A stretch of DNA of 64,000 bases from assembly GCA_051117645.1 (NCBI GenBank), contig JBNPEI010000001.1, forward strand, positions 14,717 to 78,716, in the 5' to 3' direction. The position numbers and the translations under genes are program-made. The notes under the pieces were generated by a model. The model was not told where the DNA came from. It ran no database searches and saw only the letters and a program-made list of their open reading frames with translations. This DNA is from Rhodospirillales bacterium. Lineage in GTDB: Bacteria > Pseudomonadota > Alphaproteobacteria > Rhodospirillales > Casp-alpha2. The first letter of the stretch is position 1, and each line of letters opens with the position of its first letter. Shown here one piece after another: positions 25,314-64,000 of the stretch.

Positions 25314-25404
<91 letters not shown>

Positions 25405-37248: not shown

Positions 37249-38010
37249 TCAAACTCGTTCGATTATCTTCGTCGTTATCAGTGCCTCCAAATGGCGGTGA
37301 AGTTTTACCGGGATAGAACCTCCTTGGATCAAAACCCCGGCCTCCATATTCATCTCCATAGCGTAACCGGTCAGGTTTGCACTGGAGAGAAAGCACATTC
37401 GCTCGTCGGCAACAGCGACCTTCGCATGTACTTTGCCTCCGACAAATCCGTCGGCTTTGTCGCCCCAGAAATAGATCCGGGCTGACGGAAGGACTTTCTT
37501 CATATGTCCGATCCCGTCGATGGATACCCCGCCCCCGTGCGCGTCACTCGACTCCAGCAGCATTGATATTTCCACACCACGCTCAGAAGCCGCTGCCAAG
37601 GCATTCATGATCGCCGCGACGTCGTAAGCGACGAAACTCGTCAAAAAGAACCGTTCACGTGCGACATCGATGACCTGCAACAAAGCCTGTTCCGTTTTTC
37701 GCATGGCGACGAGTTCGCTTGAAGGCCCGGTCCAAACGAGTTCGATATCCGACTCGGCTTTGGCGTGCTTGTAGGCGTAGGCAGCGCCGGTCAGCATCGC
37801 CGCCAATTCGTCTGATGGCAGAGGACAATTTCTCCAGCTTTCGACGAGTTTGCGTAGCCGGTCCCGTGCGACCGGCGCGATAGCCCAGGAACTCAACGAT
37901 GCGGAAGACGCGGGATTGTCGACCTTGCGTAATTGATTGGCCAGTTGCTCGATTTTCTCGGGCGGGGTGTTAGCTGTAATTTCGGTGATCGAGGCGAGCA
38001 GCTTGTCCAT
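37249..38010 (-). CDS. drmC: DISARM phospholipase-D-domain protein
   Basis: 253-aa ORF with a single HKD motif (HAKVAVADERMCFLSSAN), located directly downstream of drmB. Confidence 0.8.
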   Translation of the reverse strand: MDKLLASITEITANTPPEKIEQLANQLRKVDNPASSASLSSWAIAPVARDRLRKLVESWRNCPLPSDELAAMLTGAAYAYKHAKAESDIELVWTGPSSELVAMRKTEQALLQVIDVARERFFLTSFVAYDVAAIMNALAAASERGVEISMLLESSDAHGGGVSIDGIGHMKKVLPSARIYFWGDKADGFVGGKVHAKVAVADERMCFLSSANLTGYAMEMNMEAGVLIQGGSIPVKLHRHLEALITTKIIERV

Positions 38011-48277: not shown

Positions 48278-51200
48278 GGCCGCCCTCCTTCCTTGAGGGA
48301 TTCAGGCACGAAAAAGATCACCGCGACGGGGAATGTGCGTGCTGTGAAATCCTGATAACGCTGATCGATAGCTTCGAGCTCTTGAGCCTTCTCTTCCGGT
48401 ATGCGGGCCAAGCGGGCTTTGAGTGCCTCTGTATCCCGCCTCACCTGCATTCGTTCGTCTTCGGAGAACAAGGCAAGCTGCTCCGGTTCACGCTCTTTTT
48501 TGAGTTCCTGTTCGATCGTGCGGACAAGCTCGTCCAGCACAGAAGCAATGTTGTCGGCTTCCTGCCGTTTACGGTTTTCGAGCGTGTTTTGCAGGGTGCG
48601 AAGACGTTCGTTCGAACGCGCTTCCAAGGCGCGGTGGATGGCGTCTTCGTTCTTCTCGAATCTCTCTGCGAGATCACCAAAAAGACTCTCGTTGGCTTCG
48701 AACGAGGCTCCTTCTTCAAACCACTGATTTACCTGGTTCACCCGTGCCTCGCGGCTGAAGCCTCCGTCCTTCAGAAAGCCGCCAGATACCGTAAGTTCTT
48801 CGTGTAGCCGATGATGCGTTCCTCCGGTCACGACCAAGCGAGATACAACTGCGACCGCTGGTGTATCCAAAAAATTCTCGGCGACACTCCGGACGTCGAC
48901 ACGGTGCAATTTTTTCGTATCGTCCTGCGCCCAAACTTCGGCGCGCATCAAACGCAAACACATTTGGACAAGACGATGGTTCAAATGGATCAAAACGACG
49001 TCGTCACGATTCTTCGCCACCTCGTGGTCGAATGTTATAGGGCGTTGTTTTTGAGTGTGCGGATGGCGTAGACCTTCCAAGCAACGCGCCCATGAACCCG
49101 TAAGGGCGGGCATCTCGAAGACAGTGCCACTTGGTGCACCATCCAACTCGACCGGCTCGAGGCGTGCTTTCTCGGCGAGCGCCAAACCTGTCTTGACCGC
49201 TTCGCATATGCGATCGGGCGTCAGATGAAAGTCTTTCTGGGTTTCCTGAAGCCTCTCGTGAAGCCGGGAAATTCGTTCTTGAAGTTGCCGTTCGGCCCGA
49301 ACGAAACGTCTGGCCTTTGCCGCCCTGGCCTCGGCCTCTCTGGTATCGAGATCGCGGCGCGTCCCTTCGATCAATCCCGCCATCTGCGGGGCTATTACCG
49401 GGTTGACGCTTCCCATATCCGCGCGCATCGCTTCGAGTTTCGTAAGTGCGCGGATGATATCGTCCTTATGCCCCCCCAATTTGTCGCTCTCGGCCTCACC
49501 GCCTTCGACAGGATGCCATATCAGGACTTCTTTTTGCCTTTGGCCATGACGATCGATCCGGCCATTGCGCTGCTCCATGACGTTCGGATTGTATGGGATT
49601 TCGATGTGGATGAGACAGTTACAATAATTCTGTAAGTCGATCCCTTCCGATGCGGCATCGGTGGCGAGAAGAATCCGTATCGACGAGTCCTTTGGATTGG
49701 TCTGGAAAGCGGCTTTTACAGGCTCCCGCTCTTCGTTGGTCATTCCTCCATGAATTACACCGAGCCTATCCCCGCCATACCCGCGAGAAGCGAGAATCTC
49801 GTGAAGCCATTGGTGGGTCGTTCGGTACTCGGTGAATAGGATTACCCGACGATCGTTCCACTCGCCTTCGGGTTTGAGATTGGCCTCTATCCATTCGACT
49901 ATCGCATTGGCTTTCGAATCCATGCGGTGGCTGGCCTTCTCAGCCCAATCCCGCATTTCATTGAGGAGCCTTCTTTCGTCACCGGTCAATGGAGCGGCAC
50001 GTCTGGTGGCGGCTTCTACAGCCTCCGACTGGGCCGCTTCGAACTGTCTGTCGTCGGCATAATCCTCCTCGGCCTTGAGGATGGCTTTTCGAAGAATGCG
50101 ATCCGAAAACGCATCCGGTTCATCTTTCACCTTCTCAGTCGTGAGAGTTTCGAAATGCTTTTCAAGGGTCGTCGCAAAGCTCGCCGGTGACGAAAACAAC
50201 CGCTTTTTGAGAAGGCTATTTACGAATTTCGTTCCGGTGGAACCACTATCTCGACTGGTCTCCTCACGGCTCCGGCAATAAGCGTCGAGCTTTTTGTGAA
50301 TTTCCCGTTCTTCCGCAGTGTACGAAATGGAGAGGGGTTGCAAACTCCGTTTCGGATAAATCGGCTGCCCGTCACTGTCGACAAGATCGGTCTTTAATCG
50401 TCGAACCATAACCTGCGATAGCTGCTTCTCGTCGGGCAGAATATTTCGCGAGAAGCGCTGGTCGTCGAGCAATTCGAGTAGAGACGTAAAAGACTCCGTG
50501 TAGCCGTTATGCGGCGTTGCCGTAAGAAAGAGCCGATGCTGGAAATGCGGGGAGATCGACCTTATTAGACGCGTTCGCTGGCTTTCGAGAGCATAGTGGG
50601 CCGATCCCGCCGGAGCCACGTTGTGGGCCTCGTCGACAACGAGCACATCGAACTTTCGGGGATAGCTGGCACGCACCGGGAGAACGTCGCGCAATGCCCT
50701 TAAAGGCTCTCCTGATTTCAGCCAATCTACTGACGCGATCAATCGCGGAAAGGAAGTCCATGGGTTTGCATGAATTCCGCGATTACGGCGGAGCTCCTTG
50801 ATGTAATCAGTGTTGACGATTTTGAATTCGAGCCCGAATTTTTCGAGCATTTCGGTCCGCCACTTTTCCTGCAATGAGGCCGGGCAGATGATAAATACGG
50901 AACGAGCGCGATGTCTTAGGAGCAGTTCCTGGATTACCAATCCTGCTTCGATTGTCTTACCGAGACCGACATCATCAGCGATCAACAGGTTCGCTCGCGC
51001 CATATCGATGGCCCGAACGAGAGGATCGAGTTGGAAGTCTTCAATGCTTACGCCGCTGCGGAATGGCGCTTGCAGAAAATTTCGATCGGCGTTCGTCGCA
51101 GCTCCCCAGCGAACGGCATCCAGAAACGCTTCTAGCTCTCTATTGTCATCCTGCCCCGTTATAGACGGGAGCCCTGCTTTCTCGATGATGTGAGCACCCG

Positions 51201-51426
51201 GTTCGATCTCCCAAATGACTTCGATTTGCTCGCCCAGCGCATCTTCGTCGATTGACGAAATGGTCACGCAATGCTGCACCGCTTCCAAACCTCGATTTCC
51301 TTCGGATGCCTGGACGTCCGCGACTACCCATTGCCGCCTTCTGACCTCGACGAGCTGTCCCGCTTCTGGCGTCGCCTTTACTTGGTGGAGTTCAGCGGCC
51401 TCGGTTGAAGGCATCGAATTCGTCAT
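48274..51426 (-). CDS. drmD: DISARM SNF2-family helicase
   Basis: 1050-aa ORF with SNF2 motifs (LIADDVGLGKTIEAG, VVDEAHN, LFLTATPHNG, LLATDAASEGIDLQ, YNPNVMEQRNGRIDRHGQ). Confidence 0.85.
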   Translation of the reverse strand: MTNSMPSTEAAELHQVKATPEAGQLVEVRRRQWVVADVQASEGNRGLEAVQHCVTISSIDEDALGEQIEVIWEIEPGAHIIEKAGLPSITGQDDNRELEAFLDAVRWGAATNADRNFLQAPFRSGVSIEDFQLDPLVRAIDMARANLLIADDVGLGKTIEAGLVIQELLLRHRARSVFIICPASLQEKWRTEMLEKFGLEFKIVNTDYIKELRRNRGIHANPWTSFPRLIASVDWLKSGEPLRALRDVLPVRASYPRKFDVLVVDEAHNVAPAGSAHYALESQRTRLIRSISPHFQHRLFLTATPHNGYTESFTSLLELLDDQRFSRNILPDEKQLSQVMVRRLKTDLVDSDGQPIYPKRSLQPLSISYTAEEREIHKKLDAYCRSREETSRDSGSTGTKFVNSLLKKRLFSSPASFATTLEKHFETLTTEKVKDEPDAFSDRILRKAILKAEEDYADDRQFEAAQSEAVEAATRRAAPLTGDERRLLNEMRDWAEKASHRMDSKANAIVEWIEANLKPEGEWNDRRVILFTEYRTTHQWLHEILASRGYGGDRLGVIHGGMTNEEREPVKAAFQTNPKDSSIRILLATDAASEGIDLQNYCNCLIHIEIPYNPNVMEQRNGRIDRHGQRQKEVLIWHPVEGGEAESDKLGGHKDDIIRALTKLEAMRADMGSVNPVIAPQMAGLIEGTRRDLDTREAEARAAKARRFVRAERQLQERISRLHERLQETQKDFHLTPDRICEAVKTGLALAEKARLEPVELDGAPSGTVFEMPALTGSWARCLEGLRHPHTQKQRPITFDHEVAKNRDDVVLIHLNHRLVQMCLRLMRAEVWAQDDTKKLHRVDVRSVAENFLDTPAVAVVSRLVVTGGTHHRLHEELTVSGGFLKDGGFSREARVNQVNQWFEEGASFEANESLFGDLAERFEKNEDAIHRALEARSNERLRTLQNTLENRKRQEADNIASVLDELVRTIEQELKKEREPEQLALFSEDERMQVRRDTEALKARLARIPEEKAQELEAIDQRYQDFTARTFPVAVIFFVPESLKEGGRP

Positions 51427-52759: not shown

Positions 52760-53485
52760 TTATCGCTTGGACTTCCTCCACCCCGCATCCCTAGCGTGCT
52801 CCTCACTACAGAAGTAGCGCTCGCCTTTGGTCGGGTCGATTATTGTCCGTGAGTAATATTGCCCACCTGGTATGTGATAGATCCTATCGCCAGAATGGCC
52901 GATGTTTCCTTTTATTAGGCATTCTTCGTTGTCATTGACCGCTTCGGCCTTAAGTCGTGTCCCGCGGCGCCACTCCCAAGGGGCAACGAACTCTCCAGCC
53001 CACATACCAACTCTGGAGGCCTTTGCACTGGCTTCCGCTTGAACATATGCAGTGGAGTACCGGCGGTACGCGAGGGCCAAGCCATTCCGCACCATTTGAT
53101 CCCCAATATCGATACCATTTGCTATACAACGGCCGACGATACGGCCATATCTGTCTCGGTCCATAGTTTCACAAGTAACTTGAGCGCCTTCAATAAGTTC
53201 GCGCAACGCTTTGCCAGCCTCTTGACCACACAACCATTCAAGCTGGTTTTTCCGACACGTTTGACGGCCTTCGGGAGCATCAATGCCGTGAATGCGAACG
53301 CGCTTCCCAGATACCTCCAAGGTGTCGCCATCGATGACTTGAGCGAAGCCCAGAAGGTTCTCTGAGTGAGCCGTGCAGGGCAGCAAAGTGAGAAATAAGG
53401 TGAGTGACATTGCTAGATGTAGACGCGCCCGGCAGGCAGTCACCGCCTTCTCTCCTCTTCCCTTCTGTTCCCCCATGATGTTCAC
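52760..53485 (-). CDS. secreted thermonuclease (SNase) family protein with C-terminal Cys-containing domain
   Basis: The SNase core reads VIDGDTLEV.GKRVRIHGIDAPE...GRIVGRC...LVRNGLALAYRRY. A signal peptide starts at the internal Met (MSLTLFLTLLPCTAHS, ATG 53410). The C-terminal CLIKGNI...IYHIPGGQYY...YFCSEEHARDAGWRKS motif resembles the so-called sunset domain. Confidence 0.8.
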   Translation of the reverse strand: MNIMGEQKGRGEKAVTACRARLHLAMSLTLFLTLLPCTAHSENLLGFAQVIDGDTLEVSGKRVRIHGIDAPEGRQTCRKNQLEWLCGQEAGKALRELIEGAQVTCETMDRDRYGRIVGRCIANGIDIGDQMVRNGLALAYRRYSTAYVQAEASAKASRVGMWAGEFVAPWEWRRGTRLKAEAVNDNEECLIKGNIGHSGDRIYHIPGGQYYSRTIIDPTKGERYFCSEEHARDAGWRKSKR

Positions 53486-54669
53486 TCATCAATATCAATT
53501 TTCATGGATGCGAGAAACGAACCTGATGTTACAGGATCAAGTCGGTCCGCCTGCGCAAGCGCCCATTCCTCCCATTCCTCGTACTGAGCCTCAGAAACGG
53601 AAGATCTCCCCGACGCAATATCTGCCCCGATACCAGCTATATACTCCCGAATGTCTTCCGCTCTCCGGTACTTGAGAGCATCCTCCAACAAACGGTCAAC
53701 CCTGACTTTCTCAATAGCCGCCAATCTCTCTCGCTCTTTGCGCTCGGCTTCTTCCTTTTCGTGCCGCAATCGCTCAATCAGGTTCTGTTTTCGTTTAACT
53801 CTCCATTCGTAGTGGTCTTGTGCGTGCTCGCGGTGACGCCGTTCACCAAAAACGGTGAGTTCGACCACAATGTCACTTAGGCGATGCTCGAGTTTTCCTC
53901 GCCCTGCGTCTTCCCATTTTTCTGATACTGTGGAAGAAAAGCCATCGCTGAAAATATCGAGACGGAGCCTTGTAGACTCTCCTCTTGTTTCAACTGCGGA
54001 TCGCCACTCAGATTTTCGGTTTTGCGATATCGTATCCAGCTCAAAGTACACTGGGGTGTCATTGATAACTGCCGTGAGTTCCCGACCATCCTTTGTCCCG
54101 AAGCGGATCGTCATCCCAAGTCGCTCAAGTCCCAGAGCAATAGAGTTCAATAGATCAAGTCGCCTCTGCTCCACCTCATCTTCAAAGTAGGGTTTGTCCC
54201 AACTGAATATATGCCCACTCTCTTTAGACTGACGTAACCGGTCCTTGTCGGCATCAAGAAATCTCTTCAGTACGTCATGCACTTTCTCGCTTGTCGGAAT
54301 TGCTCGAACCTTCCCCACCTGCTTCCGAACACGGGATTGGACTACGTTAAGATCTTCGTCATACGCAGGCGGAACGGGCGTATCATTCAATATTTCTTCG
54401 TCGGAAATCTGGCTATATCCGTACTCGCGGCCAGCACCAATAGTAACGGTCTCATCCATGCCTGGACCGCGAGGAGGGAGTGGTGCTTTTGGTGCTGTTC
54501 TTCCTGCCGCCAGCCGAGCCCAATACCCACGAGGAGGGCATGGAACATCAAGCTTTCTACATGCCTTCGAAAACCCCGTGTCGGAAATTTGAAACCGCTC
54601 CGCCAGTTTGGTGACCGGCTCATTCCATACCAGGTCGTATAGTTCTGCACGGGTAAATGTGTGAGGCAT
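53482..54669 (-). CDS. hypothetical protein with conserved N-terminal YDLVW...PPRGYWA module and charged coiled-coil region
   Basis: 395-aa ORF. The N-terminus LYDLVWNEPVTKLAERFQISDTGFSKACRKLDVPCPPRGYWARL is a recurrent uncharacterised module that I recognise but cannot name. The C-terminal half is a Glu/Arg/Lys-rich helix. Confidence 0.6.
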   Translation of the reverse strand: MPHTFTRAELYDLVWNEPVTKLAERFQISDTGFSKACRKLDVPCPPRGYWARLAAGRTAPKAPLPPRGPGMDETVTIGAGREYGYSQISDEEILNDTPVPPAYDEDLNVVQSRVRKQVGKVRAIPTSEKVHDVLKRFLDADKDRLRQSKESGHIFSWDKPYFEDEVEQRRLDLLNSIALGLERLGMTIRFGTKDGRELTAVINDTPVYFELDTISQNRKSEWRSAVETRGESTRLRLDIFSDGFSSTVSEKWEDAGRGKLEHRLSDIVVELTVFGERRHREHAQDHYEWRVKRKQNLIERLRHEKEEAERKERERLAAIEKVRVDRLLEDALKYRRAEDIREYIAGIGADIASGRSSVSEAQYEEWEEWALAQADRLDPVTSGSFLASMKIDIDE

Positions 54670-54981
54670 TAGTCTGATACTCTTACAATCCAGTATAAGA
54701 ATTATTTTTCCACCACCAACCAGAAGAACAGCAACTCAGGATCAAAGTCCGCACAGATCCCGGCAGCCGTTGCTTGCTGCGTTCATTCTAAGGTCGTCAG
54801 GAGAATCTATTGACGCCACGGCATAATCCGCGAAGGCAGGAGAGGATAACCTTGACGGCGGGTCTAGTTGATAAGTGTGGCAATTCGAACACGGATAGGA
54901 GAAATCAAAGGAAATGACGCACTAAATGTCTATCCCGGACATACCTTCTTTGAAGAGAACACAAAAAAAGAAGGACAGAAA

Positions 54982-56187
54982 ATGTCACATGATCGATTCA
55001 ACACCGAGATCCAGAAAGCCGTCACCACCCGACCAGAGGCAACCGTTCGTGAACGCGCCGCGGGCCTGGCACGAGAACTCCAGGTAGGCGCTGAGACAGT
55101 TCTGCATTGGTATTACAATCGTCAGCGGCCACCCCACCACCTGGCCCGCCGGGCGATCCTCGATCGACTGAATACGATTGCCCCGTTCCTTCTCTTTGCT
55201 TTCGTCACTATCGCCTTCCCGGTCAACGCTCGCGCGCAAACCGCGAACAACCTCGGCGAAGTCTTCCTTGAGCTCTTCAAAAACGGGACCCTTTCGTCGA
55301 CCGCGGTGTTGATCACTGGCATCGCCTTTCTGGTCGGCATCGGCCTGGTGATCTCTGGATTCATCGGAATGGCGAAAGGCGGCCCGGGCCGCGAGCCAGG
55401 ATCCATTTCAACCGAGGGACTGGCGAAGATCGCGGCGGGTTCATTCATGGTATCCTTGGTCTCTATGATCGGCGTTGGCATTGCGACGTTCGGCGGGCCG
55501 GATGCGTCCATCGCAATGGCGATTCTGCACGCGAACGGTGTACAGAACATCCCTGGTCTTGCCAACGGCGGTGACAATATCATCAGCATGATCGGCAACT
55601 TTGCTGTTACTGCTGCCGGTCCCTTGGCATTCGTAACAATGGCCGTAGCGGTCATCATCGGCTTGATCTTCGTCGCCAAAGGCCTCAGCGACGCAAGCAA
55701 GGTCGGATCGACGGAGAACAGCGGCCGCGTCACATATAAAAGCGCGACCACCCTCATCGTTGTCGGCGTGATGCTGACTAATAGCCCCTGGATCATTGGC
55801 GCCGTTCTTGAATCTTTAGGCCTTGGCCATTTCAGTTTGCTCGGCTCTGCGGCCGAAGATGCCTTCAACAAATTGACCAACGCCGCTAGAGACAGTCTGT
55901 TGTCCTATAACGCGGACAGCGCCGCCGATGTCGACTTCAAAAACTTATCGAAAGCCGCGGCGTCTTTGATCTTCCTGAGCCTGATGCCGTTCGGCCTGAT
56001 CGCCTTCGTCAAGGGCATGGTGATGCTGGTCGGCGCCGCGAATGATCAGGGCGGCGGCCGCGCGACTTTTGGCGCCGCATTCACCTTCATTATCGCCGGG
56101 GCCTGCATGGTGAACGGTTATGACTTTTCGTGCGCCGTGGTGAACACATTTTCCTCCGTGCCGCCGGTGTGGTGCGAAGCTAGATAA
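54982..56187 (+). CDS. polytopic membrane protein built from repeated Gly-rich TM-hairpin modules, with soluble N-terminal region
   Basis: An ATG at 54982 is preceded by AAGGA. The track ORF starts at a TTG at 54868. An ~80-aa hydrophilic N-terminus is followed by 3-4 similar modules (e.g. VLITGIAFLVGIGLVISGFIGMAKGG; LAFVTMAVAVIIGLIFVAKGL; LIAFVKGMVMLVGAANDQGGG). Confidence 0.6.
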   Translation: MSHDRFNTEIQKAVTTRPEATVRERAAGLARELQVGAETVLHWYYNRQRPPHHLARRAILDRLNTIAPFLLFAFVTIAFPVNARAQTANNLGEVFLELFKNGTLSSTAVLITGIAFLVGIGLVISGFIGMAKGGPGREPGSISTEGLAKIAAGSFMVSLVSMIGVGIATFGGPDASIAMAILHANGVQNIPGLANGGDNIISMIGNFAVTAAGPLAFVTMAVAVIIGLIFVAKGLSDASKVGSTENSGRVTYKSATTLIVVGVMLTNSPWIIGAVLESLGLGHFSLLGSAAEDAFNKLTNAARDSLLSYNADSAADVDFKNLSKAAASLIFLSLMPFGLIAFVKGMVMLVGAANDQGGGRATFGAAFTFIIAGACMVNGYDFSCAVVNTFSSVPPVWCEAR

Positions 56188-56255
56188 CTGTGCTTTATAA
56201 AAAAGTGTATTGTGCTTTAATGTTTTACCAGAATACGTAATGATGCATTTATCTC

Positions 56256-56284
56256 TTGACTATGTGAGAATCATTGTTTATAAA
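56256..56284 (+). promoter_or_regulatory. sigma70-type promoter (TTGACT-17 nt-TATAAA)
   Basis: TTGACT lies at 56256-56261, followed by a 17-nt spacer and TATAAA at 56279-56284. The predicted transcription start is ~56291-56293. Confidence 0.5.
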
Positions 56285-56316
56285 TATCACTGCGTCGTTG
56301 AGAAACGATGCACTTA

Positions 56317-56590
56317 CCCCGACGTTTCGGGGTCTTAAATACGGCCATCCCTGTTTGGGGTGGTGACTGGAAGAAAGTAGAACGTGCACCCTGGCAACAG
56401 GGAAGCGTTCACTCACCCCCGGTGGGGGTCTTAAAAGAAGAAGAACGTGCATCCTGGAAACAGGTGAATGTTCACTTACCCCTGATTTGCGGGGGTCTTA
56501 AAAGGAAGACAGTGCTCTGCCTAGCTGAGCTAAGTGTCTCATACCCCCGATTTTTGGGGGTCTCACCCCCGACTTGCGGGGGTCTCGTGA
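56317..56590 (+). repeat. tandem array of G/C hairpin repeats
   Basis: The five copies are CCCCGACGTTTCGGGG-TCTTAAA (56317-56339), CCCCCGGTGGGGG-TCTTAAAA (56416-56436), CCCCTGATTTGCGGGGG-TCTTAAAA (56479-56503), CCCCCGATTTTTGGGGG-TCTCA (56544-56565) and CCCCCGACTTGCGGGGG-TCTCGTGA (56566-56590). Confidence 0.75.
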
Positions 56591-56646
56591 CGCAACGGTG
56601 TGCATGCCGTTGTCATTTTCCCGCCGAGAAGGCGGTTAATCGGAAA

Positions 56647-56676
56647 GCGGGTCTTCGGGCCCGCTTTTTGATTTTT
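56647..56676 (+). terminator. intrinsic terminator
   Basis: GCGGGTC-TTCG-GGCCCGC forms a 7-bp stem with one G-U pair and a UUCG tetraloop, followed by TTTTTGATTTTT. Confidence 0.65.
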
Positions 56677-56803
56677 CGTCATCCAGTAATTTGATCAGCC
56701 GCATCATGTGCCGCGTAATGATCCTCGCTGAATCAAAAAGGCGAGGAAAAACGCTGGAATTTATAATTTCCGCAACCGTCATTGCATATATTTATAAATA
56801 GAG

Positions 56804-57706
56804 ATGAGCCGGGAGATCTACAAAATGCGAGTACAACGCCTGGCGGGTTTGCTTTTTCTCAGCGCCCTGGCAGTCCAGTCGATTACGGCCGCCCATGCAA
56901 TGAGCGAAGGCGCCGGTCAGGTCGTGGAGTTCCGGGAGCAGAATCAACAGGCCTACGAGCTCATTCGTCCAGACCTTCAATCTATGCCGAACGCCGATTT
57001 TCACCTCATCATGACGGCGATCATCGACCTCGACCGCGACGGCAAGGCGGAAATCGCGTGGCGGGACGAGGACGGCGATACGCCGATGTGCATAGCAAAC
57101 CAGCGTTGTCCGTTCGGGATTTTTTCCGTCAACGAGAACGGCGTCGTCACAGAAACCTTCCGCGGGTTTGCCCGACACATCCGGCTTCGTCCCGATACAT
57201 CTGGAATGCAGATGATCGAAATCGACGGCGCCGAGCTCTGGCGCTGGGACGGGACGAATTACGTCATAGATACGAATTTTTTCGATCAAACCTTTGAGTT
57301 GTCGCCCGTCCCGCCGGATAGCCTACAGCCGGTCACCGAGCTTATGCGCGCCGCCGGTCTAAAAGTCTATTCCGACGACGATCTGCGGTATGCGAACTTT
57401 GACGTCGATGGCGACGAAATCGATGAACTCTTCATTTATCAAGGATCCAACGCCACATGCAGTGAACTCGGGTGCAATATCTACGGGTTTAATGGCACTG
57501 ACGGCTACTGGTTCATGGATGCCGTCGGCGTGCCGCAGATCGCCGTCGCCAAGCCTGTCCGATACGGCGCCAGGTTCGACCCGGACGCTGTTCACGATGG
57601 CGTACCTGACATTATCGTTTTTCACGGTCCACAAGGTTTCACCAGGATGACCTGGGACGGGGACAAAGGCGACTATCGGGCTATTGGCCGGATAACGCCG
57701 AAGTAA
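56804..57706 (+). CDS. hypothetical secreted protein with two DxDxDG-type (FG-GAP/EF-hand-like) modules
   Basis: 300-aa ORF with a signal peptide (LLFLSALAVQSITAAHA) and two similar segments containing DLDRDGKAEI and DVDGDEIDELF, each followed by Cys pairs. Confidence 0.6.
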   Translation: MSREIYKMRVQRLAGLLFLSALAVQSITAAHAMSEGAGQVVEFREQNQQAYELIRPDLQSMPNADFHLIMTAIIDLDRDGKAEIAWRDEDGDTPMCIANQRCPFGIFSVNENGVVTETFRGFARHIRLRPDTSGMQMIEIDGAELWRWDGTNYVIDTNFFDQTFELSPVPPDSLQPVTELMRAAGLKVYSDDDLRYANFDVDGDEIDELFIYQGSNATCSELGCNIYGFNGTDGYWFMDAVGVPQIAVAKPVRYGARFDPDAVHDGVPDIIVFHGPQGFTRMTWDGDKGDYRAIGRITPK

Positions 57707-57727
57707 TAGAAATCGAGGAGGCCCGCC

Positions 57728-58135
57728 ATGACAACTACTCCCGCCGCCGATCTCATCGTCGATTCACCACTTCTCGCGGTCACCAAGGCTGTCTGGCGAT
57801 TGCAGGACAAAGGATATGAACTTGTAATGAAACGCGACGGTAAGGACTGGCTAGTCGGGCCTCCTCAGCCGGATGATTCTCGCCACCTTGTCGCCGATGT
57901 ATATATCAAGTCCACAGACTGTGGCGACGGCCGCTTTCACCACGAGGTCGATCTGCTACCGAATTCTGAGATGCAGGCCGTCATCGAGAACGACCACAAG
58001 GCCGCTCGCGAAGTGTATATGTATCTTGTCGACCCCTTCCAGGATCTGAACGTCGCCGCTCAGATAGATCGCGACGACATCATTTCAGCGATCACGGCAT
58101 ATCACCAGAGACGCCAAGGGACTCCGCCTGCTTGA
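57728..58135 (+). CDS. hypothetical protein
   Basis: 135-aa ORF. AGGAGG lies 7 nt upstream of its ATG, and it starts 21 nt after the preceding gene. I recognise no domain. Confidence 0.55.
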   Translation: MTTTPAADLIVDSPLLAVTKAVWRLQDKGYELVMKRDGKDWLVGPPQPDDSRHLVADVYIKSTDCGDGRFHHEVDLLPNSEMQAVIENDHKAAREVYMYLVDPFQDLNVAAQIDRDDIISAITAYHQRRQGTPPA

Positions 58136-58172
58136 CGTTATGAATTAGGTCGAAATTTGGGCCTGTTACCCT

Positions 58173-58196
58173 AAAGACACACGATGTCTTTATTTT
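58173..58196 (+). terminator. possible weak intrinsic terminator
   Basis: AAAGACA-CACGA-TGTCTTT is followed by ATTTT. The stem is A/T-rich, so confidence is low. Confidence 0.3.
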
Positions 58197-58363
58197 CCCG
58201 CATTATTGACATGTAAAACGCTGACTTTCTGTTTTCAGCATGCATATCAATGCTTGTCTTCAAAGTATTTCTTTTTTATAGATAATGAGTGCTTTTTTCT
58301 TATCTCAAATTCAATTTTATGAGACGATTATGACAGTCAAAATCTAAACAAAGGAGGCCTGTT

Positions 58364-58576
58364 ATGGCTGTTATTATCCAATCCGAAAATGAGTTTTTCT
58401 GCAATCGCGGCGCCGAACTCGTGCATGAGTTCATCGGCGATGCGGCGAACGATAACGTCGACACCGCCGCCGTGGAGAGCCTTCTCGCGGATCGGTTTCA
58501 GACCGATGACGTCGGGCATCTTATCGACCTGGACGGCGATATTCACTTCTTCGTCAACCGGATGCCCGCTGCGTAG
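58364..58576 (+). CDS. small acidic hypothetical protein (70 aa)
   Basis: A strong SD (AAAGGAGG) lies 7 nt upstream of the ATG, and an AT-rich promoter-like region lies further upstream. It competes with an overlapping 113-aa minus-strand ORF (58337-58678) that has no recognisable SD. Confidence 0.4.
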   Translation: MAVIIQSENEFFCNRGAELVHEFIGDAANDNVDTAAVESLLADRFQTDDVGHLIDLDGDIHFFVNRMPAA

Positions 58577-58720
58577 AGGGGCACTCGCCGGAAGCACGCC
58601 CGGGGCCGCTACAATAGCGGTTCCGGGCGTTCCGATTTCGCCATTGTTTCTCATTCGACCAGAGGGCTGAGTAAGCAAATCTCGCGGCCTTGCTATCGGG
58701 CATCGAAACCAACGATGCGC

Positions 58721-59290
58721 TTACTCATCCTCACCTCTTTCTCCTTCTTCCTGACCGAACACTCCGGCAGGCTTCAGTTCTTTCAGCCGCTTCTGGATCT
58801 GCGAGACATTGGTCGGCTGAAAATTCCAGCAATCCACACCAACATCGCATGTGCCGCCACCCGACGGAGTCGAGAAACCCGGCAGTCGACCATGGCTGTG
58901 GCCATGGAGCATTACTGCGCCCCGGCCGATCCGGCGCCATGTACGGAGACCGTAATGGCACAAAACAACGAAAGTCCGATCGACCGAGATCTCCAGGTAT
59001 TCGTTCACAGATGACCAACCGGACGCCTTCCGCGTCTTGTGCTTGTCGTGGTTTCCTGCGACCAAATGTTTCCTGCCGGAAAGTTCTGACAGGTAACTTT
59101 CTGCAGATCTCTCAGCGCCTTGAACAAAATCGCCGATGACGTAGATATCGTCATCCGGCCGAACGACCGCATTCCAGTTCGCAATGATGGCGGCGTCCAT
59201 CTGACGCGCCGTTTCAAACGGGCGATTGCAGTACCGGATGATGTTTTCGTGGCCGAGGTGCAGGTCCGAAGTAAACCAGGTTCTATTCAT
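58721..59290 (-). CDS. metallophosphoesterase (calcineurin-like), short type
   Basis: 189-aa ORF with motifs SDLHLGH, GDF, GNHD and HGHSH in canonical order. Confidence 0.8.
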   Translation of the reverse strand: MNRTWFTSDLHLGHENIIRYCNRPFETARQMDAAIIANWNAVVRPDDDIYVIGDFVQGAERSAESYLSELSGRKHLVAGNHDKHKTRKASGWSSVNEYLEISVDRTFVVLCHYGLRTWRRIGRGAVMLHGHSHGRLPGFSTPSGGGTCDVGVDCWNFQPTNVSQIQKRLKELKPAGVFGQEEGERGEDE

Positions 59291-60132
59291 CAGCCCGCCC
59301 CCGCGATTCTTGATGTCGCAACGACTTTTAGATAGTTCCGCACCAGTTCGACTCCGCCAGAGATCTCGTCTGGCAGCTTCTCGCCAGCAAACTCAAACGT
59401 TGGCATGGGTTGAGGCCCCTCCTCGAAACCGGCGATGTAAACCGGGTCCTTCAGCGGCGGCAACGGACCGTCGATATAATTGCGACCCAGGCGATGCGCC
59501 AACGCGATATCCTCTTCGGTCGGGCCTTCGCGATTCCATTTCTCGTACGTTTCAGCCTGCGATAAGATATTGAGATTATAAGAACCGACGTCAGCGATAA
59601 GCGCGCCAACCCCTGCCCTATACGGGCCCGGCAACATCATCGAAAACCGCTCTACTACTTCGTCGGCGATTTCCGGCTTTAGCCCTGCACGCAATCTACT
59701 GTCTTCCTCAGTGAACACTACAGACGGTTTCGGCGAACGACTGCTCCAGTGTCGTGCGGGATGAGCAGAACATCGAGTCGACATCCAGCCGCCCAACTCC
59801 TGAAGCACGCCGGGGGCACCGCATTCCTCGCAGGTCTGTTCGGACAGCAAGCTGGCGACTTCAACTACAGCCAGGGGAAAATCCTCGGCGCCGACCATAT
59901 ACATCTCCAAGCGGCCGTATTTCTCTTTAACCTGGGTGAACCGACTACCGTCAGATTCGACGTCACGATCATTCGTCAGTGTTAGACAAACCGCTTCAAT
60001 CAGGTCGCGCCAGCCCGGGCCGCATTCCAAGCCAAAACACATAAGCGATTCCGTTGGCGGCAGGTAACGATCCGCGAAAAGGGCGGGATACAGCTCGAAT
60101 AAATTTCTTTGTTCACGTTGCCAATCTTGCAT
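59290..60132 (-). CDS. hypothetical Cys-rich protein, paralogue A (CGPGW / QVKEKYG / CxxCG...C.AH)
   Basis: 280-aa ORF that shares motifs along its length with 61047-61883 (CGPGW, QVKEK(F/Y)G, C-x2-CG-xPG, C-x2-H, ADEVVER). Its stop shares 1 nt with the start of the downstream phosphoesterase gene. Confidence 0.65.
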   Translation of the reverse strand: MQDWQREQRNLFELYPALFADRYLPPTESLMCFGLECGPGWRDLIEAVCLTLTNDRDVESDGSRFTQVKEKYGRLEMYMVGAEDFPLAVVEVASLLSEQTCEECGAPGVLQELGGWMSTRCSAHPARHWSSRSPKPSVVFTEEDSRLRAGLKPEIADEVVERFSMMLPGPYRAGVGALIADVGSYNLNILSQAETYEKWNREGPTEEDIALAHRLGRNYIDGPLPPLKDPVYIAGFEEGPQPMPTFEFAGEKLPDEISGGVELVRNYLKVVATSRIAGAG

Positions 60133-60174
60133 CTGAATATTCCGCTATATTGGTGATTCGGCGCTGGGTTTCGA

Positions 60175-60954
60175 TCAGGACACATCAACAAGTAAACGCT
60201 CGTTGAAGCCCGTCCTTCCTTCGCGCGGATACCCCCGCTGGTTCGATAGAACGCGCGTCTGACCGATAGTGAAATCCATACTCCGATGGGAATGACCATA
60301 AACCCAGAGCGGAACGCCGCTCGCCTCGATTACATCATCGAGATTCGAGTTGAACGCCGGTGATAACTCGTCACCATTGAACTCATCTGGAACGGCCAGG
60401 GGTGAAGGAGAAAAATGCGTGATGACGACGGTCTTCGAAGGATCTCCGCGGCCGAGCTCATCGACCAGAAACTGCTTCTCCGCCTGGAACCGTTCGACGG
60501 CGTCTTCTGGTGTAAACCGGCGCGATGACCCCTCCTCGCCATCAAGGTAGATGAGGCGATAGTCATTCATCCGGTTTCGCGCGCAATCCATTGCCCGATC
60601 AATGTCTAACACGGAGGATCCATAGAGTTGAAAATCGGTCCAGAGTGTGGCGCCAACAAATCTCCAGCCGCCGATCTCGACGACACCCGGTTTCAAAACA
60701 TGGACATCACTTGCCGAAGACGCGCGCTCCATCTTCTCATCAATCGCTTCGATCGAGTTTTGTGTTCTCGAGTAATACTCGTGATTGCCAGGGATATACA
60801 CGACCGGAGTCTTCAACGACATTACGGCCCAGCGGACACCCGCGTCCTCAAGATCGATGTCACCGGCCAGGATGAGGACATCGTAGTCCAAGTCTCCCGG
60901 CAAGGAATACCGGGCAAATTCATTATGAAGATCAGAGAGGATGTGAAGACGCAT
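60175..60954 (-). CDS. metallophosphoesterase (calcineurin-like), Icc/CpdA-like size
   Basis: 259-aa ORF with motifs LSDLHNE, AGDI, PGNHEY, THF and GHSH in canonical order. Confidence 0.8.
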   Translation of the reverse strand: MRLHILSDLHNEFARYSLPGDLDYDVLILAGDIDLEDAGVRWAVMSLKTPVVYIPGNHEYYSRTQNSIEAIDEKMERASSASDVHVLKPGVVEIGGWRFVGATLWTDFQLYGSSVLDIDRAMDCARNRMNDYRLIYLDGEEGSSRRFTPEDAVERFQAEKQFLVDELGRGDPSKTVVITHFSPSPLAVPDEFNGDELSPAFNSNLDDVIEASGVPLWVYGHSHRSMDFTIGQTRVLSNQRGYPREGRTGFNERLLVDVS

Positions 60955-61046
60955 TGGACACCTGACAATTTAGCTGAATCATTACTGAATGGGATTCTGG
61001 TCAGATGCTCAATGAGCGCGAGGAGTGTAGCGCTCCTCAATCAGAA

Positions 61047-61883
61047 TCACAACGATTCTGTCTTTATTTTGTCGATTTTGAGCGGATCGAAAAGCGGCCA
61101 TGATGCCGTTTTGTAGTAGTCTTCGATAAGCCACAAAGCGCCTTCTTCTGCACTCTCATCGTCGAGGTCGCCTAACCAGGCAAACTCTGGTTTCCGCCAA
61201 TGCTGAAAGTCGTCAACGAACAGGAGTTCGCGGCTGGGTTTGCCTCTCGGATAGAGATAGTTTTCCTGGGCCACAACACTTAGCATCGCTATGACACAGC
61301 GGCGGAACGGCGATTCCTCAAAATGCCGTATACGCTCGACTACTTCATCCGCTCGCTCCGGCTGGAGGGCACCGGAGATATCGGATTTCTGCGTCCTTAC
61401 AAAGTCTGGATCCCAAACACCAATAGGCGAAAAATAATGATCCCATTTGGAGACTGGTTCAGCCTCATCAATCTTTTCTAACTCAGCATGCTCAGCACAT
61501 AGAGTCGCTATTAGACCGGGCCATAGTCGGGCCCGACCGGGCTGGCCGCAAACATCACAGACCTGATGAGAAATAGCTTTGATAGTCTGCGTGGCACCCC
61601 ATACCTTCTTGTCTCGTGGCATCGAGGTGTAAATCGTCAGGCCACCAAACTTTTCCTTCACCTGGGTTATCTGAAGATCAGGACGACCGTCTGCACGAAG
61701 ACCTGAGAGAACTTCGCAAATGACTTGGATCAGGTGATACCAGCCAGGGCCGCATGCCAGTCCTTTGCCGTAGCCTTTCGCGTCGCCGCGCAGAACCTGA
61801 TCGTGAAACAGCGACTCGTGCTCTGACAGAATCCGATCCTGCGCTTCTTTGCGTTCCGCCTTCTCGCCCTCGGTCAGCGGCAT
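61047..61883 (-). CDS. hypothetical Cys-rich protein, paralogue B (CGPGW / QVKEKFG / CxxCG...CAEH)
   Basis: 278-aa ORF, a paralogue of 59290-60132 (see above). Confidence 0.65.
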   Translation of the reverse strand: MPLTEGEKAERKEAQDRILSEHESLFHDQVLRGDAKGYGKGLACGPGWYHLIQVICEVLSGLRADGRPDLQITQVKEKFGGLTIYTSMPRDKKVWGATQTIKAISHQVCDVCGQPGRARLWPGLIATLCAEHAELEKIDEAEPVSKWDHYFSPIGVWDPDFVRTQKSDISGALQPERADEVVERIRHFEESPFRRCVIAMLSVVAQENYLYPRGKPSRELLFVDDFQHWRKPEFAWLGDLDDESAEEGALWLIEDYYKTASWPLFDPLKIDKIKTESL

Positions 61884-61889
61884 AGGGCC

Positions 61890-62423
61890 TTACTTCTTCT
61901 TTCGCGGTCGCCCGGTTCGCTCGTGATCAGTCTTGCCAAGCGGCACCGGCCGCTCCTTGGCGATCTTGGATCGCAGCTTGGACGAATTCGGCGCAATCAT
62001 CGGATAATCGCGCGGAAGCCCCCATTTTGTCCGGTACTGATCCGGGTTCATATTGTAACTTGTCTTAAGATACCGGGTCAGCATCTTCAGCTTCTTCCCA
62101 TCCTCCAGGCATACGATGTGGTCGGGCTTCACAGATTTGTCGATCGGCACCGCAGGTCCATCACGTTCCGGATGGCGCGCACCCATGTCCTTGGTCTTCT
62201 CTCGCTCCGCCGCCGCGGCATCGCGGATAAAGCCAGAGGCTGGCCCACCTGCCACCTGCCCGCTTGCCGCACCCTGCAGCGTACCGAAAACATCGCTGAA
62301 AACCTCGCCAAAGGACTTTCCCTTTTCAACCGCGCCTGAGGAAAACATAGTGTTCGTGGCTTCCGTCGCCAGACGAACCAGTTCCATATCGTCGCTTTTG
62401 CTTTTAGCATCGCCATCCGCCAC
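61890..62423 (-). CDS. MucR/Ros-family transcriptional regulator, zinc-ligand-deficient variant
   Basis: 177-aa ORF. The C-terminal region HIVCLEDGKKLKMLTRYLKTSYNMNPDQYRTKWGLPRDYPMIAPN aligns with Ros [44 protein letters not shown]. Three of the four Cys2His2 ligand positions are substituted. Confidence 0.85.
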   Translation of the reverse strand: MADGDAKSKSDDMELVRLATEATNTMFSSGAVEKGKSFGEVFSDVFGTLQGAASGQVAGGPASGFIRDAAAAEREKTKDMGARHPERDGPAVPIDKSVKPDHIVCLEDGKKLKMLTRYLKTSYNMNPDQYRTKWGLPRDYPMIAPNSSKLRSKIAKERPVPLGKTDHERTGRPRKKK

Positions 62424-62607
62424 AGTATAACTCTCCTAATCAAAAGAATGATGGGAGAATAATAGCACATAGCCCAGGCAATTCAAAAGAAAGAACATGG
62501 CTATGCAATATTATCGTTTATACCAAGTCACGGACTTACGGGCGGGCAATGCATTACAGTTCACTTGCAATGATCCCCGCGGCGCCGATTCCGCCGATCG
62601 TCTGCGC

Positions 62608-62937
62608 TCATGGCCTTCTCGCGGCCTCCTCGGCGCGGTGCTCAAGGTAACGTCGCAGCGTCTTTTCGATGTTCTCGGCGCCGATCGGGTTCGCGCTGTG
62701 CACCACGAAATCAAACATTGGTGGAATAAACCCCGGCTCGTCGAGATCCTGGCCAATTAAAAAATGAACGACCGCCATCGCGGTGTCGTCACCACCCAGG
62801 TCGTGGTCGAATGAGATCAGGCTTGGGCAACCTTCGCTCTCCAAATGCTCGATTGCTGCAGCCGAGGTCCGAACCACGGTCCAAATGCCATTTCCTGGCG
62901 GGTCTCGAAGGTCGTCTATGAAGAGTCGGTTTGCCAT
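62608..62937 (-). CDS. receiver-like small protein (resembles phage-type cyclic-phosphate-processing receiver, cREC)
   Basis: 109-aa ORF with LFIDDLRDPP...W.VVRT...A...L......ISFDHDLG...VHSANP. The pattern matches my memory of the cREC/REC-like family common in phages and mobile elements. Confidence 0.5.
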   Translation of the reverse strand: MANRLFIDDLRDPPGNGIWTVVRTSAAAIEHLESEGCPSLISFDHDLGGDDTAMAVVHFLIGQDLDEPGFIPPMFDFVVHSANPIGAENIEKTLRRYLEHRAEEAARRP

Positions 62938-63119
62938 ACGGTCACATTCTCCCTACCCGTCGCCGGAAGGCCTAGAAGCTATATAATTTCGGTTATGTTC
63001 GTCGGTTCTGAATTCGATGGCACTAACAACAATCTTGAATATAAATGACCCATTGGCCTGGCCAAGCCATGCTGGTTATTTGGCTGCGAAGCCAAACTCG
63101 GATTGACGCCAATTCTAAC

Positions 63120-63653
63120 CTAGATAGCTAAAGGTGCCTGATTTTCAGACTGAGGCTCTCCTGGCTTGTCCCAGACGGGCGACACCTTCTTCCATGCCGC
63201 TTTCAGGTCCGATGCCATTCTCATGTCGTCGTTACTCGCCATCAAGTCAGCGAAAAGCAACGTCATCTCCTCGACGTTTCGGGCCGTCAGGACGTCATCC
63301 AATTTGCGGCTCATGACTTCCTTGGCCCATGCGATTGGGTCTGGCGCGCATTCCGGGTCGTACCAACCAAGTGCCCAAAAATTCTCAACGTCGACGTCAT
63401 CGAAGGGACCAATGATGTGGAAGACCTTTCCGTAATTCTTGGCAATCTCGACAGCTTCGGCTGGAATCTCACCGTTAAAGTTAGATTCCAGTCGGATCTC
63501 TTCGAGAGTGTAATCTTCGTATACGAAGGCGTTGTCTGCGAACTCTGACCGAACATGTTCGAGCAGGTCATCGACGCCCTTCTCGGCTACCCAGAGCTTC
63601 GGCTTGTCGGTCGACCTTGGCATTTCAACGACTATGATCGGTTGCTGTTTCAT
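63120..63653 (-). CDS. hypothetical acidic protein
   Basis: 177-aa ORF that is Asp/Glu-rich. I recognise no domain. Confidence 0.5.
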   Translation of the reverse strand: MKQQPIIVVEMPRSTDKPKLWVAEKGVDDLLEHVRSEFADNAFVYEDYTLEEIRLESNFNGEIPAEAVEIAKNYGKVFHIIGPFDDVDVENFWALGWYDPECAPDPIAWAKEVMSRKLDDVLTARNVEEMTLLFADLMASNDDMRMASDLKAAWKKVSPVWDKPGEPQSENQAPLAI

Positions 63654-63667
63654 TTGGCGGGTCCTTA

Positions 63668-63973
63668 TTAGTTTAGTTGCGCAAGAGCTTCCAAATACGT
63701 CCCCTCGGCTTCGGTTTTTACCGCGCTATCTGGGAGCCCGTTTGTCGCCGCATACGACAGAATCCCGTGCTTCGCGACGGCCTTGTCCAGGGCGCCGTCG
63801 ATCAACCTATAACGAGCTTCGTCGCTGTTATTGTCGTACGTCTGCTGCGACATGCGCTTTTGATCGTAGAGAACGGCCCAGAGTTCGGTCGCCCGATCGG
63901 CAATCCTGCGCCGGATCGAATTGATTTCTGTGACGGTCGCCTGCGGATTTTCCTCGATGGCGCAGTACGCCAT
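63668..63973 (-). CDS. hypothetical protein
   Basis: 101-aa ORF, 14 nt upstream of the next minus-strand gene. I recognise no domain. Confidence 0.45.
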   Translation of the reverse strand: MAYCAIEENPQATVTEINSIRRRIADRATELWAVLYDQKRMSQQTYDNNSDEARYRLIDGALDKAVAKHGILSYAATNGLPDSAVKTEAEGTYLEALAQLN

Positions 63974-64000
63974 CGACTGAACCGATCTCGCGAGATAATC

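Follow-up and report, generated by a model that had tools for sequence, protein, structure and literature searches.

What kind of element fills the spacer between a membrane-protein gene and the gene for a protein of 293 amino acids (aa) in the backbone of a mobile island of a Rhodospirillales bacterium? The question concerns positions 56256-56676, plus strand, of a 64-kb stretch of DNA (GCA_051117645.1, JBNPEI010000001.1), which as a whole we call the window and to which all coordinates refer unless a second locus is named. Reading the spacer directly from the stop codon of the upstream gene (56187) to the next gene, we find a 385-base intergenic stretch that looks like a previously undescribed non-coding RNA, a candidate with about 13 hairpins. 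Judged from its sequence, the RNA family appears to be real and new, with a narrow distribution of two genomes only. Our favored reading, to which we give a probability of about one in three (0.35), is a stand-alone RNA of ~385 nucleotides (nt) with five stem-plus-tail modules that dock one protein, the RNA working as a scaffold or decoy.

The first step is to ask whether the stretch encodes a protein. An open reading frame (ORF) of 128 aa that begins with ATG (56308-56694) does cross the RNA region. The comparison that bears on it comes from the one homologous RNA locus found, L007, which lies on a 4.36-Mb ENA/NCBI contig and was reached through a protein homology search with the downstream gene, after which 21 kb of its surroundings were fetched. 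In L007, indels of 43 and 2 nt split the ORF and leave plus-strand pieces of at most 36 aa; the frame is kept for 20 codons, with 7 of the 20 residues changed, and then runs into a stop. Because the ORF is broken in the homologous locus, we rejected a protein-coding reading of the region, and the initial annotation of this DNA, which had seen no credible ORF here, still stands on this point. The NCBI locus tags of the two flanking proteins, ACFE0S_00335 and ACFE0S_00340, follow directly on each other, so the public record presumably holds no annotation between them.

The stretch is instead bounded by transcription signals. A sigma-70-like promoter is followed by a predicted transcription start near 56291, and L007 has TTGACA-17-TATAAG at 9471-9499, with 10 of the 12 hexamer positions identical and the spacing the same. 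Around these hexamers the sequence has diverged: only 8 of the 17 spacer positions agree, and the 120 nt from the stop-codon region through the promoter (56173-56292) are 35-48% identical between the loci. The consensus promoter scan that we ran demands a T at the sixth position of the -10 hexamer, and it did not list this promoter because the last base of its -10 hexamer is not T. At the other end lies an intrinsic terminator that, folded alone, reaches -24.2 kcal/mol (z = -6.0) with a cUUCGg loop, compared with -14.9 kcal/mol for the reverse strand, and its sequence is identical in the window and L007. It was missed by the consensus terminator scan because the stem extends through A-U pairs and takes in the T-run. 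A stand-alone bacterial small RNA gene is expected to have a promoter of its own, a body that does not code for protein, an intrinsic terminator and conservation in relatives, and all four can be read from this locus. The earlier proposal of a non-coding RNA gains support from the retention of promoter and terminator in a second genome.

Between these boundaries, the RNA gene predicted on the plus strand would be ~380-386 nt long, driven by the promoter at 56256-56284, starting near 56291 and ending at ~56669-56676. Its product would begin with a 5'-terminal hairpin, continue with a variable modular middle and close with a 3' domain that hardly varies and comprises two hairpins and the terminator. 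In the middle, five ACCCC(C)-loop-(G)GGGGU hairpins that carry UCU(U/C)A tails (the C-hairpins, C1 to C5) would alternate with longer GNRA-capped hairpins and with purine-rich linkers of the ARN type. When each module is folded on its own, 13 local hairpins result, listed with the other features in Table 1. The promoter, the five C-hairpins, a degenerate hairpin, the long hairpins, a GACA...TGTC hairpin and the terminator all lie where the initial annotation had placed them and fold as it described; H11 and H12, between the last C-hairpin and the terminator, are two conserved hairpins that it had not included.

Within the window, the C-hairpins are specific to this locus. The pattern CCCCN{3,10}GGGGTCT, searched on both strands of the 64-kb window, gives eight overlapping matches that correspond to five hairpins (56317-56335, 56416-56431, 56479-56498, 56544-56563 and 56566-56585), all of them here, as against 0.2 matches in a shuffled window; none of 100 shuffles reaches eight. 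Their loops vary both in sequence and in size, with 3 to 9 nt over the ten loops of the two loci. The long hairpins LH1 and LH2 are paralogous, forming a 58-nt repeat of 76% identity, and the repeat families within the RNA are 61-81% alike at the irregular spacings of 162, 65 and 22 nt. C4 and C5 could alternatively pair as one nested hairpin (-27.8 kcal/mol, compared with -12.2 and -13.5 kcal/mol separately). A near-identical tandem array was not found, Tandem Repeats Finder (TRF) giving only two copies of a 22-nt unit, and the likeness to ToxI-type tandem repeats that had been suggested does not hold for the units themselves.

Table 1. Predicted elements of the RNA locus, followed by the neighboring and island genes, in window coordinates
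Feature	Position	Strand	Description
Promoter	56256-56284	+	Sigma-70-like; TTGACT 56256-56261, 17-nt spacer, TATAAA 56279-56284
H1, 5'-terminal hairpin	56291-56312	+	9 bp, GAGA loop, begins at about the predicted +1; -12.1 kcal/mol, z = -4.7
C1	56316-56340	+	ACCCCGA-CGUU-UCGGGGU (56316-56333) and tail CUUAAAU
H3, degenerate hairpin	56344-56364	+	GCCAUCCC-UGUUU-GGGGUGGU
LH1, long hairpin	56380-56410	+	GAACGU...CCCUG-GCAA-CAGGG...GCGUUC; GNRA loop; -17.4 kcal/mol, z = -5.3
C2	56415-56436	+	ACCCCC-GGU-GGGGGU (56415-56429) and tail CUUAAAA
LH2, second long hairpin	56443-56473	+	GAAA (GNRA) loop; -13.5 kcal/mol, z = -4.1
C3	56478-56503	+	ACCCCUG-AUUUG-CGGGGGU (56478-56496) and tail CUUAAAA
H8	56507-56539	+	GACAG...GCUC-UGCCUAGCU-GAGC...UGUC; best conserved internal element
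C4 and C5	56543-56583	+	C4 56543-56561, C5 56565-56583; abutting, 22-nt period (TRF: 2 copies)
3' domain	56592-56635	+	H11 56592-56613 (ACGCAACGG...CCGUUGU); H12 56621-56635 (CCGCC-GAGAA-GGCGG)
Intrinsic terminator	56638-56676	+	Extended stem 56638-56673, core GCGGGUC-UUCG-GGCCCGC 56647-56664, then U5-GA-U5
Post-terminator spacer	56677-56824	+	148 nt to ATG 56825; 78-93% identical to L007
Upstream gene	54982-56187	+	Polytopic membrane protein; sub-threshold NCBIfam similarity to IncI1 TraQ
Downstream gene	56825-57706	+	293-aa protein; signal-peptide-like N-terminus; no known family matched
395-aa protein	53482-54669	-	208 homologues
GmrSD	30309-32303		Island defense gene
SIR2-like protein	34922-36688		Island; trypsin-like protease and Vsr also present
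PLD	37249-38010		DISARM class-1-like set
DUF1998/MZB	38020-39870		DISARM class-1-like set
Helicase	39867-43925		DISARM class-1-like set
MmeI/Eco57I-like methylase	43922-48277		DISARM class-1-like set
SNF2	48274-51426		DISARM class-1-like set

Is the element an RNA, and from which strand would it be read? Over 391 nt the plus strand folds at -184.6 kcal/mol, compared with -137.0 +/- 6.6 kcal/mol for dinucleotide shuffles (z = -7.16), and the L007 copy folds at z = -6.7. The minus strand reaches only -149.0 kcal/mol (z = -5.0), a gap of 35 kcal/mol that is accounted for by about a dozen G-U pairs, which become A-C mismatches on the other strand. H3 likewise is specific to the plus strand because of its U-G and G-U pairs. 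Loops typical of RNA are present, namely the GNRA-type loops GAGA, GCAA and GAAA and a cUUCGg loop, and together with the many G-U pairs they point to an RNA read from the plus strand.

The comparison with L007 adds evidence of selection. Positions 6357-15788 of L007 are collinear with 53113-64000 of the window at ~81% identity, and L007 keeps the promoter hexamers and their spacing, every hairpin type and the terminator. One 63-nt module is missing from it, that of LH2, where a 43-column gap running from the end of C2 covers most of the hairpin. Each locus has exactly five C-hairpins despite the missing long module and one C-hairpin that is placed differently. H1 is retained with an altered loop and one C-G pair turned into U-G, H3 minus one apical pair, and LH1 with a U-G to C-G change. 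C1 has another loop in L007 and a stem that is shifted and extended (CACCCC-GGACG-GGGGUG), and C5 has one pair changed on both sides (C-G to U-A) and another on one side (G-C to G-U). The tail and linker of C3 (UCUUAAAAGGAAGACAG) are identical in the two loci; H8 differs by two substitutions only, both in its internal loop, with 11 of 11 pairs unchanged; and 56593-56712, which holds most of the 3' domain, is 93% identical, the H12 loop being GAAAA in L007. Over all aligned columns the RNA is 82% identical, well above the four-fold sites of the upstream gene (39%) and of the downstream gene (64%), and substitutions fall on 27 of 209 paired columns (13%) compared with 35 of 132 unpaired columns (27%). 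Among 212 pair cells, 95% still pair, two through double (compensatory) changes and five through wobble changes. The observation of the initial annotation that hairpin modules repeat with their stems kept and their loops varying is borne out by this comparison. As far as two aligned genomes can tell, the locus does not code for protein, is structured on the plus strand, evolves under purifying selection and has conserved transcription signals at either end.

If so, what would such an RNA do? In the reading that we favor, the five hairpin-plus-tail modules would be equivalent docking sites for one protein, and the RNA would act in trans by titrating or assembling the protein so docked. The logic would be that of CsrB and RsmZ, the recognized element being a stem with its tail and not a GGA loop. 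Several observations weigh against this reading. The RNA is known from two sequences only, and covariation with two sequences is not significant, 111 of 500 shuffles reaching the observed score. With covariation not significant and the conserved block a mosaic, it is the pattern as a whole, and not covariation, that makes the case for selection. The mosaic shows in four-fold site identities of 39% for the upstream membrane-protein gene, 64% for the downstream gene and 88% for the 395-aa gene, and recent exchange, rather than selection, could account for some of the high identity seen in the 3' domain. Conserved stems with variable loops are also expected from simple selection for hairpin formation or from recent duplication, so the stem-kept, loop-variable pattern is by itself no proof of protein recognition. 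No candidate RNA-binding partner was found among the neighboring genes in Pfam, NCBIfam, PHROGs, PADLOC or PDB sequences. The missing consensus promoter for the downstream gene fits a leader model equally well. Finally, a search of the window for antisense targets found nothing above chance, with 3 matches where 3.0 are expected at k = 12 and 17 where 12.1 are expected at k = 11, a null result that argues only against cis-encoded base-pairing targets.

In terms of known systems, the closest description goes by analogy: the element would be a new family within a familiar class, the modular RNAs of repeated hairpins that mobile elements carry. Its architecture resembles that of CsrB and RsmZ, of ToxI-type antitoxin RNAs, of STAXI and of the RNA anti-CRISPRs (Racrs), and by the defining features compared here it can be assigned to none of them. 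Like CsrB and RsmZ, it would be an RNA of a few hundred nt with its own (here predicted) transcription, many small repeated hairpins and an intrinsic terminator, and the copy number and arrangement of the units vary between relatives. Those RNAs are defined by GGA motifs in loops or linkers; here the loops vary, and the C4-5/G4-5 stem and its flanks are conserved. GGA occurs in one of the ten C-hairpin loops (C1 of L007), and the Rfam CsrB and Rsm models remained unmatched.

Should the stretch be transcribed, modular RNAs of medium size would gain a new family, one that resides in the backbone of a tRNA-linked, defense-collecting Rhodospirillales island. RNAs of this build on mobile elements, among them CsrB-like sponges, ToxI antitoxins, RNA anti-CRISPRs and STAXI, have time and again proved to be regulators or decoys, and a new example with stem-plus-tail recognition and a variable loop would extend this list and offer a handle on an island backbone made of genes of unknown function. 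Its present value is that of a well-defined candidate rather than a discovery, as it comes from two genomes, with no identifiable partner and no evident link to defense.

The explanation that competes most directly with a trans-acting RNA is a 5' leader, that is, an attenuator or a processive-antitermination element that governs read-through into the downstream operon. We consider it possible, if doubtful. No consensus promoter was found by the scan between the RNA terminator and ATG 56825, the 148-nt spacer after the terminator is far better conserved than the sequence just upstream of the RNA promoter (78-93% compared with 35-48%), and promoter, repeats, terminator and gene follow one another as they do in attenuated operons and in type III toxin-antitoxin loci. 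An 8-mer, UCUUAAAA, is common to the hairpin tails and the boxA of lambda nutL (the lambda sequence was checked), H12 is built in the style of boxB, with a 5-bp stem and a GARAA pentaloop (GAGAA or GAAAA), and, as in the phage nut/boxA leaders, the element stands upstream of a terminator and an operon. Yet the terminator is very strong (-24.2 kcal/mol, followed by U5-GA-U5), and inspection revealed no competing antiterminator pairing of more than 5 bp. The boxA consensus GYTCTTTAANA is gamma-proteobacterial (PMC5725501), whereas the host here is an alphaproteobacterium; allowing up to two mismatches, it occurs 68 times in the window where chance would give 55, a level no better than chance, and a single tail (56331) is among these matches. 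Unlike in the phage leaders, moreover, the boxA-like motif overlaps the stem, in which its first bases sit, and there is no N-like protein. The downstream gene could also be driven independently of the RNA, by non-consensus promoters or by a perfect TATAAT at 56762-56767. The latter lies within a near-palindrome, GGAATTTATAATTTCC (56754-56771), which follows a hairpin (CCUCGC...GCGAGG, 56722-56747; -12.8 kcal/mol) whose stem is conserved and whose loop is variable, and the two might serve the downstream gene as operator and promoter. On the upstream side, neither sequence reading nor the scan found a terminator after the stop codon (56187) and before the hairpins begin, the first strong one being that at 56638-56676. 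Given that there is no terminator upstream and no consensus promoter downstream, the RNA may share transcription with one or both neighbors, and the description of the locus as an orphan in the initial annotation is not established. The stretch could then be a structured 3' untranslated region (UTR) and terminator of the membrane-protein gene, which would protect the mRNA from 3' exonucleases and insulate the genes downstream, with no separate function; even so, a 3'UTR-derived RNA could arise from the internal promoter. Classical mRNA stabilizers are indeed GC-rich hairpins without U-tracts. We think this unlikely, however, since a near-consensus promoter stands 100 nt after the stop codon and is conserved in position and spacing amid diverged sequence, since distant homologues of the membrane protein have downstream intergenic regions of 55-160 nt with no hairpin array, and since 13 hairpins with GNRA loops and conserved single-stranded linkers exceed what stabilization needs.

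A trans-acting RNA might also work in pieces. Under this explanation a precursor would be cut by an endoribonuclease at the tails into hairpin-capped units, whether similar to a type III antitoxin, to CRISPR repeats or to a Racr-like decoy; we regard it as improbable. Its attraction lies in the architecture, which as in ToxI, CptI and TenpI loci comprises promoter, repeated units, terminator (ending 148 nt before ATG 56825) and protein gene on a mobile island beside defense genes, and in the conserved 8-nt tails (UCUUAAAA) after the stems. By our own count the distances from a tail to the 5' flank of the next unit are 33, 32 and 66 nt, the first two being of the length of class 1 CRISPR spacers, and the GUUCACU...CUUAAAA flanks and CCCC...GGGG stems appear close to type I-F and type I-E repeats, respectively. 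Racrs, for their part, are promoter-proximal repeat mimics on mobile elements without cas genes (PMC10651486), and here too hairpin units directly follow a promoter, each stem being followed by an 8-nt tail and some units lying 32-33 nt apart. The units, however, are heterogeneous, unlike the near-identical tandem repeats of 34-45 nt in type III antitoxins, and the downstream protein, with its signal-peptide-like start, has no similarity to ToxN, AbiQ, CptN, TenpN or any other RNase family. The supposed spacers are conserved, mutually paralogous hairpins, GUUCAC is the 3' strand of a long-hairpin stem, neither the window nor L007 has a cas gene or a CRISPR array, and the pattern scans of metagenomes and viruses gave no CRISPR array with a similar repeat. 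In another reading, the RNA would be a decoy of a new kind encoded by the mobile element, its five stem-plus-tail modules mimicking the substrate of a protein of the host or of a rival element and thereby neutralizing that protein, which could be a repeat-binding endoribonuclease of the Cas6/Cas5 type, an RNA-guided defense effector or a toxin. To us this is a speculative idea with low odds; if true, the island backbone would carry an RNA-based anti-defense or antitoxin factor with no known partner family nearby. The hairpins might alternatively act as single-stranded DNA while the island is transferred or replicated, serving for instance in ssi-type priming or in recognition by a relaxase. 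The locus does lie in the backbone of a tRNA-Ser-linked mobile island, homologues of the 395-aa protein adjoin genes for ArdC antirestriction proteins, integrases and DUF2958 proteins, the membrane protein has a weak TraQ-like match, and loops of 3-9 nt favor hairpins over operators in duplex DNA. The tandem structured unit STAXI (RF01728; PMC2864571), likewise with frequent UUCG loops, without an assigned function and found on mobile DNA near antirestriction, SSB and integrase genes, raised the same question of RNA or single-stranded DNA. STAXI, though, consists of pseudoknots and belongs to Enterobacterales, and its covariance model fails to match here. Against a DNA element stand the conserved promoter and intrinsic terminator that bracket the stretch, the UUCG and GNRA loops, which stabilize RNA more than DNA (an argument also made for STAXI in PMC2864571), the absence of any recognizable relaxase, primase or replication initiator nearby in Pfam, NCBIfam and PHROGs, and the lack of a PDB fold match for the model of the 395-aa protein; we rate this as very improbable. 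Least probable of all is a functionless, decaying local repeat that two genomes share by chance. Such a relic would sit well with just two loci, with mosaic divergence along the block and with non-significant covariation, but not with an RNA that is 82% identical next to flanking genes whose four-fold sites are 39-64% identical, with substitutions that avoid paired positions, or with the retention of hairpin types, promoter and terminator.

How widely, then, does the RNA occur? A scan of the whole window with Rfam 15 at gathering thresholds matched only the tRNA at 25314-25400, and with permissive filters the best scores over 56150-56850 were 9-18 bits, against thresholds of 45-95, with the same outcome for L007; the earlier impression that the locus fits no described system is therefore upheld as regards Rfam. 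BLASTN against E. coli genomes, plasmids and phages, with settings for near and for distant relatives, gave no match. The hairpin unit is absent from the rest of the 64-kb window and from the 21 kb of L007, all five copies in each locus being confined to one site, which speaks against a repetitive extragenic palindrome (REP), bacterial interspersed mosaic element or miniature inverted-repeat transposable element (MITE). A dispersed repeat of the REP/MITE kind had been named as a possible undoing of the RNA proposal, and within these two stretches no dispersal is seen. An exact-pattern scan of 185,579 species genomes returned five matches and no homologue (two in Bryobacterales CRISPR arrays, one in a Bacteroidetes hairpin array and two by chance), a weak negative, since the pattern would not match L007 itself. 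With the exact pattern, one scan of JGI metagenomes gave no match and the other two singleton chance matches, and two scans of IMG/VR viral sequences gave nothing relevant. Among 13 further loci of homologues of the 395-aa and membrane proteins, none has the RNA.

Two kinds of hit from the species-genome scan can be described in their own right. The large CRISPR arrays of Bryobacterales (L003 and L005, OY729422.1) have the repeat GATTTCCGGGGTCTTAAAACCCCGGCCCCATTGAAGC, were picked up solely because this repeat contains GGGGTCTTAAAA, and are unrelated. In a Bacteroidetes metagenome-assembled genome (MAG; L004, 150-390 of CAJXLK010000006.1), at least six CACCCCGCT(T/A)AGCGGGGTCT hairpins stand upstream of an hflX-like gene, with four CTACCCCCGCTTAT repeats ahead of them. 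In style (CA-CCCC...GGGG-UCU) these hairpins match those of the window although the phylum is unrelated, and the array could be a REP-like repeat or an analogous RNA.

The proteins encoded around the RNA offer few clues. No Pfam family was found at E <= 0.01 among the backbone proteins, and searches of the neighbors with Pfam, NCBIfam, PHROGs and PADLOC found no adjacent ToxN/AbiQ/CptN-like protein, reverse transcriptase or Cas protein, in agreement with what had been noted before. The upstream membrane protein scores 36 bits against IncI1 TraQ in NCBIfam, where the cut-off is 80, and belongs to a family for which only five homologues were found, marked by the motifs NFAxxAAGPL and PFGLIAF and two C-terminal cysteines. 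The proteins of the window and L007 share an extra N-terminal extension of ~57 aa that is absent from the distant homologues (L018-L020). In two of these three distant loci, the next gene encodes a family-less protein of more than 850 aa. We considered whether the 293-aa protein might be a relative of the ~1000-aa proteins that follow the distant homologues, and the two are unrelated.

The gene for the 293-aa protein most likely starts at ATG 56825 and not, as the initial annotation had it, at 56804, because the latter ATG is AGG in L007 and the database protein has 293 aa. Among 5.8 billion sequences there are two of this protein, one 100% identical from a Rhodospirillales MAG and one 78% identical from L007. 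It opens an operon that extends to ~58135 and continues with a 135-aa protein, and neither protein has a match in Pfam, NCBIfam, PHROGs, PADLOC or PDB sequences. Homologues of the 395-aa protein that often lie beside the ArdC, integrase and DUF2958 genes do so on other elements, which lack the RNA. AlphaFold models this protein with a predicted local distance difference test score (pLDDT) of 88.6 and a helix of ~90 residues, and the 88% four-fold identity of its gene, set against 39-64% for its neighbors, points to recent exchange or unusual constraint.

The wider setting is an island of more than 38 kb that follows tRNA-Ser(CGA) (25314-25403) and is stacked with defense genes (26000-53485), among them, besides those in Table 1, a C5 methylase and an SNase with a 'sunset' domain. 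The initial annotation had counted the RNA as part of a defense island, a view that the comparison with L007 does not support. The RNA lies within the syntenic block 53113-64000, and the left-hand cargo differs between the loci, with a DISARM class-1-like set in the window and MmeI-family and DEAD-like helicase genes in L007. It follows that the RNA belongs to the conserved backbone and not to the variable defense cargo, and by this comparison it appears tied to no one defense system. Synteny with L007 starts in the 5' part of the SNase ORF (53113-53485, matching L007 6357-6710) at 95% identity; L007 6357-6710 has no called gene, and the junction of cargo and backbone seems to cut the SNase gene. 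Farther downstream, 58150-58340 is an AT-rich intergenic stretch (41% GC) upstream of a 70-aa ORF (58364-58576), and L007 has a 70-aa gene at the matching position.

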